Shown: one piece after another, positions 1 to 5,574 of the stretch
Position numbering within the stretch: position 1 is the first letter of the stretch
How the letters are laid out: every line of letters starts with the position of its first letter
IMG/VR virus record: IMGVR_UViG_2706794695_000002
Direction: 5' to 3' (one strand)
Source of the DNA: a virus
Taxonomy: Duplodnaviria > Heunggongvirae > Uroviricota > Caudoviricetes
Length of the DNA stretch: 25,215 bases
Translations under genes and position numbers: made by a program
Notes under the pieces: model-generated
What the model saw: only the letters and a program-made list of their open reading frames with translations
Database searches by the model: none
What the model was told of the DNA's origin: nothing

Positions 1-257
1 GGTTATCGCTCGCCACGGGAATATCTGCGGCAGCGGGCTTGTAATGGGTTAAGTGATAACAGATGTCTGGAAATATAGGGGCAAATCCAATCGTCGCCGT
101 ATTCCCGTATTAACAGAGACCGTAGCCCGACGGGGAACTCCTTCTGCGCGAGTGTGCGGGAATAATCAAAAACGATGCACACCGGGGTTACCGGGTACAC
201 ATATTTCATCATGCCAGCGAGTCCGGTTCTGGCACGGAAGAAACCGGACGTTATGAT

Positions 258-668
258 TTAGTGCGGAAATATTTGTGTAGTGTTCTGTATGTTCTCAGTA
301 AAGAGTAATGAATTATCAAAGGTATAGTAATACCTTTTGTTTTCGTGGATATTTGTAATCCATCTGAAAACCCCTGCTGTAGCAAGATTTTTCCTGTATT
401 CGTAAAATGATAACTCTCCTGATTTGAATCCTTTTAAGGTGGCTTCTATAAGGCATTTATTTTTTGAAAATCTTACATTTACAACCTTACCCTGTCCTTT
501 TATTAAAACCGTATTATCGTTTTCAAGAACAAGATGAATATTCTCTGTGGCTAAATAGTAAATGTAATGTGAGACATTGTGACGTTTTAGTTCAGAATAA
601 AACCAGTGATAGTTTAAATTATTTCGCACTTTATCGAATATTTGTTTAAAAATGGCAACCTGAGCCAT
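258..668 (-). CDS. Conserved phage protein of unknown function (resembles the lambda right-end ORF and E. coli prophage ybcV-type DUF1398 proteins, as recalled)
   Basis: Track ORF 258..683 (-). The in-frame ATG at 666-668 ([11 protein letters not shown]...) has a GGAAGG Shine-Dalgarno about 9 nt upstream on the minus strand, so it is preferred over the ATG at 681-683, which lies inside that SD. The gene sits in visibly AT-rich DNA (about 27% G+C in a hand-counted 60-nt line). Homology is from memory only. Confidence 0.6.
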
Positions 669-725
669 TGTAGTACCTTCCATGTGATATGAGGGGGCGT
701 AGTCTGCACGATTATCTAAATTGCT

Positions 726-959
726 TCAATCTGGTCTAACCTGTTTTCTGAGCAATTCAGTAATGTCACTCTTTTCTTTGTTTGCTTCAGGCGAAACTCT
801 TTTTTCTGAGCACAGTCTCCGGCGGCAGGCTTCAATGACCCAGGCTGAGAAATTCCCGGACCCTTTTTGAACAAGAGCGATGTTAATTTGTTCAATCATT
901 TGGTTAGGAAAGCGGATGTTGCGGGTTGTTGTTCTGCGGGTTCTGTTCTTCGTTGACAT
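726..959 (-). CDS. Small Arc/MetJ-type ribbon-helix-helix DNA-binding protein (resembles prophage ylcI-type proteins, as recalled)
   Basis: Track ORF, 77 aa. After a basic N-terminus (MSTKNRTRRTTTRNIRFP) comes a segment matching the RHH pattern: a beta-strand (NIRFPNQMIEQI), helix A, a G-S-G-N-F-S turn like the GRSVNSEI turn of P22 Arc, and helix B (AWVIEACRRRL). It lies 57 bp upstream of the 258..668 gene on the same strand. The SD is weak. Confidence 0.5.
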   Translation of the reverse strand: MSTKNRTRRTTTRNIRFPNQMIEQINIALVQKGSGNFSAWVIEACRRRLCSEKRVSPEANKEKSDITELLRKQVRPD

Positions 960-1139
960 GAGGTTGCCCTGTATTCAGTGTCGCTGATTTGTATTGTCTG
1001 AAGTTGTTTTTACGTTAAGTTGATGCAGATCAATTAATACGATACCTGCGTCATAATTGATTATTTGACGTGGTTTGATGGCGTAGATGCACGTTGTGAC
1101 ATGTAGATGATAATTATTATCATTTTGCGGGTCCTTTCC

Positions 1140-1325
1140 GGCGATCCGACAGGTTACGGGGCGGAAGGCGCGCGGGTTTTCGCTATTTATGACAATTTTC
1201 CGGTTTAAGGCGTTTCCGTTCTTCTTCGCCGTAACCTAATGTTTTTATTTAAAACACCCCCTGAAAAGAAAGGAAACGACAGGTGCTGAAAACGGGCTTT
1301 TTGGCCTCTGTCGTTTCCTTTCTCT
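1140..1325. promoter_or_regulatory. cos DNA-packaging site: cosN nick region (1159-1170) with cosB terminase-binding repeats R3, R2, R1 and the cosQ side upstream
   Basis: The flanks match lambda cos as I recall it (...CCGACAGGTTACG / 12-nt core / CGCGGGTTTTCGCTATTTATGA...). CGTTTCC at 1211-1217 (R3), the inverted GGAAACG at 1272-1278 (R2) and CGTTTCC at 1312-1318 (R1) are in the expected positions, with an AT-rich IHF-like segment between R3 and R2. nu1 starts immediately downstream. Confidence 0.85.
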
Positions 1326-1347
1326 GTTTTTGTCCGTGGAATGAACA

Positions 1348-1867
1348 ATGGAAGTCAACAAAAAGCAGCTGGCTGACATTTTCGGTGCGAGTATCCGTAC
1401 CATTCAGAACTGGCAGGAACAGGGAATGCCCGTTCTGCGAGGCGGTGGCAAGGGTAATGAGGTGCTTTATGACTCTGCCGCCGTTATAAGATGGTATGCC
1501 GAAAGGGATGCTGAAATTGAGAACGAAAAGCTGCGCCGGGAAGTTGAAGAACTGCGGCAGGCCAGCGAGACAGATCTCCAGCCAGGGACTATTGAGTACG
1601 AACGCCATCGACTTACGCGTGCGCAGGCCGACGCACAGGAGCTGAAAAATGCCAGAGACTCCGCTGAAGTGGTGGAAACCGCATTCTGTACTTTCGTGCT
1701 GTCGCGGATCGCAGGTGAAATTGCCAGTATTCTCGACGGGATCCCCCTGTCGGTGCAGCGGCGTTTTCCGGAACTGGAAAACCGACATGTTGATTTCCTG
1801 AAACGGGATATCATCAAAGCCATGAACAAAGCAGCCGCGCTGGATGAACTGATACCGGGGTTGCTGA

Positions 1868-1893
<26 letters not shown>
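1348..1893 (+). CDS. nu1: Terminase small subunit
   Basis: Track ORF, 181 aa (MEVNKKQLADIFGASIRTIQNWQEQGMPVL...), essentially identical to lambda gpNu1 as recalled. It lies directly downstream of cosB and its 3' end overlaps the start of A. Confidence 0.97.

Positions 1894-5574
<3,681 letters not shown>

Follow-up and report, generated by a model that had tools for sequence, protein, structure and literature searches.

Two small genes of the DUF3950 and DUF1398 families upstream of cos in a lambda-like phage

What are two short genes, running against late transcription immediately upstream of a phage cos site, and do they form a unit? We address this question in a tailed-phage sequence of 25,215 nucleotides (IMG/VR record IMGVR_UViG_2706794695_000002; Caudoviricetes), called here, at its full length, the window. 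In this lambda-like late region Nu1 (1348-1893) and A (1868-3793) are followed by head, tail, lom, stf and tfa-sized open reading frames (ORFs); the two minus-strand genes, which encode proteins of the DUF3950 (YnfO/YlcI) and DUF1398 (YdfO/YbcV/lambdap78) families, lie upstream of its cos site. A first-pass annotation of this DNA had described the two ORFs with correct coordinates and anatomy, including the gap of 57 nt between them (confirmed from the DUF3950 stop codon, TGA at 728-726, and the DUF1398 ATG at 668), and had suggested from their adjacency that they might form an operon, perhaps an antitoxin-like regulator with its effector. We consider it fairly probable that they are instead two separate, already catalogued accessory ("moron") genes of Escherichia coli lambdoid phages, present in the window as a Qin-type allele that lacks ybcW/lambdap79.

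Two conserved families, two alleles and independent distributions

Both ORFs encode conserved families. The DUF1398 protein matches Pfam PF07166 over the entire profile (positions 1-119 of 119; E=3e-43; 147 bits against a cut-off of 22), so that the earlier guess "DUF1398-like" proved exact; it also belongs to PHROG 413 and matches E. coli YdfO, whose structure (PDB 2HH8) comes from structural genomics, at a phmmer E-value of 1.4e-69 and about 75-80% identity (about 75% by tblastn). The DUF3950 protein, which begins MSTKNRTRRTTTRNIRFPNQMIEQINIALVQKGSGNFS, matches Pfam PF13132 (E=2e-20; 72.8 bits against a cut-off of 25), the NCBIfam family YlcI/YnfO (NF041551, YlcI_YnfO_N; 35.2 bits against a cut-off of 30) and PHROG 949. 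Both genes are under purifying selection. The ratio of nonsynonymous to synonymous substitution rates (dN/dS) over the first 50 codons of DUF3950, compared with copies from phages of the Shiga toxin (Stx) type, is 0.04-0.10 at a synonymous divergence (dS) of 0.8-1.6, and its conservation is therefore at the level of the protein and not of the DNA; DUF1398 evolves faster, with dN/dS of 0.18-0.35. Because the family matches are this strong and dN/dS is well below 1 for each, we take both ORFs to be real genes and not chance reading frames.

The arrangement in the window is that of the cryptic prophage Qin of E. coli K-12, where nohA, ynfO and ydfO (b1548, b4533 and b1549) follow one another in the same order, on the same strands and at the same distances: in both, Nu1/NohA and ynfO are 388 bp apart, and ynfO and ydfO 57 bp. 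Nucleotide identity is about 90% over window positions 220-1400, and the proteins are 97% (YnfO) and 75% (YdfO, by tblastn) identical. Phage lambda (lambdap78, lambdap79 and an unnamed 64-aa ORF) and the prophage DLP12 (ybcV-ybcW-ylcI) carry homologous genes in the same slot, from the lysis genes to cos, at 76-78% amino acid identity for DUF1398 and 95% over 55 aa for DUF3950, but differ from the window in having about 610 bp with the plus-strand ybcW/lambdap79 between the two genes, and a shorter DUF3950 tail. The statement of the first-pass annotation, that lambda has both genes about 0.6 kb apart with another small ORF in the interval, was thus correct. Lambda and DLP12 align to window positions 89-746 (83%) and 797-1400 (95%), with blastn breakpoints at 742-746 and 797; the breakpoint falls inside the DUF3950 C-terminal tail, and hence the protein exists in 64-aa (YlcI, lambda) and 77-aa (YnfO, window) forms with hypervariable tails. 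No YbcW homologue was found anywhere in the window.

Neither the genes, nor their annotation, nor their arrangement is new, and all are extremely common. Of 5,426 complete E. coli genomes, 5,211 contain part of the 1.4-kb region, at a median of four places per genome, and genome annotations label it "DUF1398 / YlcI/YnfO / nohD". The adjacent junction is found (at 80% coverage or more) in 2,171 of these genomes and the ybcW junction in 1,361. More than 80 IMG/VR contigs and the phages PhiR49_1, Kati, Chlobot and ev099 have copies 98-100% identical to the window; for DUF1398 the identity is 100% in these four phages and in 80 IMG/VR contigs. Alignment with lambda and the prophages bears out a real difference between two alleles, while the adjacency itself, which had been thought suggestive, is simply the ynfO-ydfO layout of Qin. 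A 2026 preprint reports that lambdap79 activates the Vulcan NADase defence and that escaper phages delete it, in the authors' view likely by recombination with Qin; a deletion of this kind would be expected to produce the layout seen in the window.

The two genes are also distributed independently of one another. DUF3950 is present in 155 phage records and DUF1398 in 43: some 110 phages, most of them Stx-converting, gave a DUF3950 match and, with this query, no match to DUF1398, and in two inspected phages of the Stx type, with an HK97-type terminase, DUF3950 stands divergent from the HNH-TerS-TerL genes with no DUF1398 nearby. DUF1398 occurs alone as well: in 933W-like prophages, which lack DUF3950, the slot between Rz and Nu1 holds a 177-aa form (27% identical); remoter members of the family stand by themselves on the chromosome, next to a fimbrial operon or an aryl-polyene cluster; and a third homologue in K-12, ycgX, adjoins bluR. 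Together with the opposite-strand gene that separates the two in lambda and DLP12, and with a promoter-like region ahead of DUF1398 that is retained in both alleles (the alleles become homologous again about 75 bp ahead of the DUF1398 start, in a stretch that includes the promoter-like site and a palindrome described below), these distributions weigh against the proposal of an operon. An exhaustive phmmer search for distant DUF1398 relatives reached no further than 196 clusters, many being pieces of lambda control DNA.

Several database entries should be read with care. Genome contigs assigned to Kitasatospora, Brevibacillus, Cohnella, Flavobacterium, Pedobacter and others (our loci L011-L039) are of about 3.5 kb or 48 kb and bear the lambda right end; such contigs, in unrelated taxa, made up most of what the genome-contig scan returned and are almost certainly sequencing-control lambda DNA. 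The identities found for the record "Campylobacter phage CJLB-4" (48,361 bp) equal those of lambda. A match of DUF3950 in Pasteurella phage Pmp7 (41% identity) is antisense to an annotated gene and was set aside as probably spurious.

Predicted properties and expression of the two proteins

The DUF3950 protein (isoelectric point 10.9) would most likely be a small, very basic, dimeric, Arc-like ribbon-helix-helix (RHH) DNA-binding protein, with an arginine-rich N-terminal arm, a putative strand RNIRFP, two helices and a C-terminal tail that appears freely exchangeable. In 40 aligned homologues residues 1-49 are nearly invariant and the C-terminal tails hypervariable. AlphaFold2 (AF2) predicts helices at residues 19-32 and 34-52 of the single chain (predicted local distance difference test, pLDDT, about 83). 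Alignment by hhalign with Arc, or with Arc and Mnt, gives a probability of only 0.04-0.08, though in the correct register, and places N14-I-R16-F-P18 of DUF3950 on N11-L-R13-W-P15 of Arc; Arc N11 and R13 are base-contacting residues in the Arc-operator structure. By sequence and profile no similarity of the protein to an RHH family was detectable: a Pfam search with 40 members at E<=10 returned DUF3950 only, its profile matched none of the PDB sequences, and Foldseek found nothing in the PDB with an E-value below 5 for the model. As to the Arc/MetJ-type signature noted at first pass, we regard an RHH fold as plausible.

The DUF1398 product is a soluble cytoplasmic alpha/beta protein, and neither an envelope nor a head protein. 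We reject the labels "head protein" (PHROG 413) and "putative envelope protein" (lambdap78 and many phage records): the protein (isoelectric point 9.4) has no hydrophobic segment (maximum 19-residue Kyte-Doolittle hydropathy 0.39) and no N-terminal signal, and its gene is antisense to the late operon and non-essential for plaque formation. A profile search of PDB sequences found 2HH8 only; the AF2 model was poor and did not convincingly recover that structure. In homologues as distant as 22-31% identity, conservation is confined to columns of L, T, G, Y, N, A, W and R, and since no catalytic-type residues are conserved the protein probably binds something and is not an enzyme. No toxin family was found for it in Pfam, NCBIfam or PADLOC; in PADLOC-DB 2.0 DUF3950 had no match and DUF1398 matched only Csx23, at E=0.025, so that neither is assigned to a defence family.

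Under the interpretation that we prefer, each gene would be a unit of its own, and DUF1398 would probably be transcribed from a weak sigma-70 promoter that a consensus scan places over the end of DUF3950, with 9 of 12 consensus matches and a weak -35 element. The -35 element is overlapped by a palindrome, ATCTGGTCTAACCTGTT, which matches the PdhR-box consensus AATTGGTnnnACCAATT at 10 of 14 positions. Genomic SELEX (systematic evolution of ligands by exponential enrichment) peaks of PdhR have been reported at equivalent boxes upstream of ybcV and in ynfO/ydfO, and in a pdhR mutant ybcV mRNA is down 10-fold (PMC7660256). By analogy PdhR may bind the palindrome in the window and place DUF1398 under host control. 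Both genes are kept by selection, and presumably act in the lysogen or in the interplay of phage with host or phage with phage.

Several observations weigh against parts of this account. No terminator was found in the 57-bp spacer by terminator scan or RNAfold, and co-transcription of the two genes in the window allele is therefore possible. A consensus scan upstream of the DUF3950 gene gave no convincing promoter. Nucleotide homology between the window and Stx-type phages begins exactly at the DUF3950 ATG (and stops near codon 47), so that a conserved operator upstream of the gene is not definable from lambda- and Stx-type sequences. The N-terminal strand expected of an RHH protein is missing from the AF2 monomer.

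Possible roles and alternative explanations

A literature search found no functional study of YdfO, YbcV, YnfO or YlcI, and lambdap78 (DUF1398) is non-essential for lytic growth in a CRISPR interference map; the earlier statement that neither gene has a known role in lambda biology therefore stands. Published expression data are indirect: ydfO transcript levels change with an ionic liquid and with over-production of DicC, and ybcV and ybcW are up on expression of T4 MotB in BL21(DE3), a strain whose DE3 prophage may cause cross-mapping. We discarded a report that YdfO overexpression raises resistance to oxidative stress (PMC4077768, citing Wang 2010, PMC3105296), as the cited paper names YfdO, of CPS-53. 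PMC4077768 appears to confuse ydfO (Qin) with yfdO (CPS-53); PMC3105296 has no mention of ydfO.

Among other explanations, we would call it unlikely that one or both genes serve in phage-phage or phage-host conflict, by superinfection exclusion, defence or anti-defence. The location invites the idea: as the first-pass annotation had claimed in calling this a moron position, the interval from the lysis genes to cos holds variable accessory genes in related phages (bor, KilA-N, TonB-like and others), and here its occupants are AT-rich and antisense to the late genes. Further, DUF1398 is the faster-evolving of the two and exists as highly diverged alleles in the same slot, and the lambdap79 cassette between the two genes is what the Vulcan defence senses. 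Against this, there is no PADLOC match, the orphan chromosomal copies of DUF1398 have aryl-polyene and fimbrial operons for neighbours and not defence islands, and the searchable literature yielded no experimental phenotype.

We find it quite improbable that DUF3950 is tied to cos or packaging, binding near cos or the packaging genes and modulating the terminase or late read-through across cos. DUF3950 always directly precedes the first packaging gene and is read away from it, a position that holds for two unrelated modules (lambda Nu1/A and the Stx-type HNH-TerS-TerL) and that in the window puts its ATG 200 bp from cosN. The same position is, however, a generic boundary between modules, at which accessory genes collect; the two phage types have unrelated flanking DNA, which leaves no shared binding site in evidence; the 933W-like prophages have a Nu1-type terminase without DUF3950; and a short cosQ-cosN-cosB segment suffices for lambda packaging.

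To about the same low degree we entertain a more specific possibility, that DUF3950 is a dedicated genome-end, Arc-like DNA-binding protein acting on co-resident or incoming lambdoid phages, with DUF1398 as a separate conflict effector. The right end of virion DNA is the first to enter the cell. DUF3950, which would sit within a few hundred bp of that end, reading inward, beside unrelated packaging modules, might be made first on infection, or else from the prophage, and its targets could include cos or the late or packaging promoters. The sole support for this proposal is the conserved position.

The suggestion that the pair is a type II toxin-antitoxin-like or regulator-effector operon, in which the RHH protein would repress the operon and neutralise the DUF1398 protein, seems to us very unlikely. 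The genes are on the same strand, with the putative RHH gene first and no terminator in the short gap, and this much agrees with such a module. Its partners would nevertheless be expected to co-occur obligately, and each stands solo in many phages and loci; in lambda and DLP12 they are parted by a gene on the opposite strand; and DUF1398 matches no toxin or defence family. The antitoxin claim suffers further from the tail of the putative RHH protein, the part by which antitoxins bind toxins, which is swapped between the 64-aa and 77-aa forms without a matching change in DUF1398: the adjacent DUF1398 is 75-78% identical to the window copy in both allele types. Apparent fusions of DUF3950 to DUF1398, which might have been taken as evidence of partnership, are artefacts of TGA read as Trp. 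The two proteins with both Pfam domains (P0013 and P0014) have TGA at the junction, which is a stop under translation table 11 (seen for P0013 in locus L214). P0013 is a 233-aa "fusion", a cluster listed with 761 member sequences, its TGA having been read as Trp on short AT-rich contigs.

Finally, that the genes are decaying passengers without function, carried along by recombination around cos, can be dismissed as scarcely credible: frameshifted copies do occur in cryptic prophages (L040) and the region is a known phage-prophage recombination substrate, but both genes show strong purifying selection at saturating synonymous divergence and intact copies persist in thousands of genomes and in functional phages.

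We therefore retain the interpretation of two separate accessory genes. Genes of the ynfO/ydfO type are among the most widespread prophage genes of E. coli and occur in lambda and in K-12 itself; a function assigned to either protein would close a gap in what is known of the best-studied phage. The ynfO-ydfO pair ought not to be read as an operon or as a toxin-antitoxin module; the adjacency simply marks the lambdap79-less allele, which is relevant because lambdap79 triggers the Vulcan defence; and the common "head protein" and "envelope protein" annotations of DUF1398 are without support. What novelty is left concerns only what these ubiquitous lambdoid genes do, and the conserved place of DUF3950 close to cos.

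The surrounding locus and comparison with known systems

The features of the locus are collected in Table 1.

Table 1. Features of the cos-proximal part of the window (positions in the window)
Feature	Position	Strand	Remarks
Hairpin just 3' of the DUF1398 stop codon	221..249	-	RNAfold of the minus strand; without U-tract
DUF1398 gene (ydfO/ybcV/lambdap78 type)	258..668	-	136 aa; alternative upstream ATG at 683 gives 141 aa
Shine-Dalgarno sequence GGAAGG for the ATG at 668	676..681	-	read from sequence
Predicted sigma-70 promoter for DUF1398	711..738	-	-35 TAGACC 738-733, 16-nt spacer, -10 GATAAT 716-711
DUF3950 gene (ynfO type)	726..959	-	77 aa; basic N-terminal arm, putative RHH core, variable C-terminal tail
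PdhR-box-like palindrome ATCTGGTCTAACCTGTT	729..745	.	over the -35 element and the last DUF3950 codons
Allele-specific segment (C-terminal tail of the 77-aa form)	747..796	.	in lambda/DLP12 about 610 bp with ybcW/lambdap79 instead
Conserved core of DUF3950, residues 13-52	804..923	-	putative beta-strand RNIRFP, helix A, GSGNFS turn, helix B
cosN cohesive-end sequence, variant allele GGGCGGAAGGCG	1159..1170	+	alignment with lambda, DLP12, Qin, PhiR49_1 and 2H10

Although the ORF list extends DUF1398 to 683, most homologues and RefSeq begin at Met6, and the good Shine-Dalgarno sequence claimed for the shorter protein is indeed present: ACATGGAAGGT, which contains GGAAGG, is invariant across five aligned loci (the window, Qin, DLP12, lambda and L040). 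The DUF3950 and DUF1398 ORFs share a reading frame, with one TGA and 14 open codons between them (683-728). The AT-rich island of about 700 bp described at first pass exists as a stretch of 31-44% G+C, but it is mainly the DUF1398 gene, because G+C is 31.4% in that coding sequence against 48.7% in the N-terminal 50 codons of DUF3950 (36.9% in the 3' tail); for comparison, Nu1 has 52.7%, A 54.1% and the whole window 53.6%. The hairpin beyond DUF1398 was rejected as a canonical terminator, as it has no U-tract and the terminator scan was blank at this place, and Rfam found no RNA family in window positions 1-2000. The first 89 bp of the window, ahead of the point (89-90) at which PhiR49_1 and lambda become homologous, match few genomes, E. 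coli LR-71-1 and IH5 among them; an ORF of 69 aa there (3-212, minus strand) matches no family, and PhiR49_1 has an annotated ORF of 162 nt at the same place.

The cos region is itself polymorphic. The 12-nt cohesive end of the window has GGGCGGAAGGCG where lambda, DLP12, Qin, PhiR49_1 and 2H10 have GGGCGGCGACCT, five of the last six bases differing between nearly identical flanks. The variant 32-mer occurs in 13 fetched loci (115 have the lambda form), and we take it from this recurrence to be a natural allele and not an error. On the cosQ side, a polymorphic block (1083-1089/1103-1109) reads GCGTAGATGC in the window, DLP12, PhiR49_1 and 2H10 and GCCTCCACGC in lambda and Qin; the former creates a GTAGATG direct repeat, 20 bp apart. 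A strong inverted repeat at 1262-1329, between cosB and the Nu1 start (AAAGGAAACGACAG...CTGTCGTTTCCTTT), is known lambda sequence; it gives only spurious miRNA-family matches in Rfam and self-matches in blastn.

Set beside known systems, the locus is closest in layout to Qin, from which it differs in that the window copy lies in an apparently intact lambda-like late region and not in a cryptic prophage, in a DUF1398 allele that has diverged from that of Qin (dS 0.67) and in its variant cohesive end. With the P22 repressors Arc and Mnt the DUF3950 protein shares its small size, and it would also share an N-terminal arm that leads into a strand, then helix A of 14 residues, the G-x4-S turn and helix B; it has no statistically significant sequence or profile similarity to them and bears an extra, variable C-terminal tail. 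Like lambda bor and lom, which are accessory genes of the late region expressed in the lysogen, the two genes are small, lie within or beside late operons and would be served by promoters of their own, and DUF1398 (lambdap78) can be lost without harm to lytic growth; unlike the products of bor and lom, which are outer-membrane proteins with known phenotypes, theirs are cytoplasmic, with no phenotype known.
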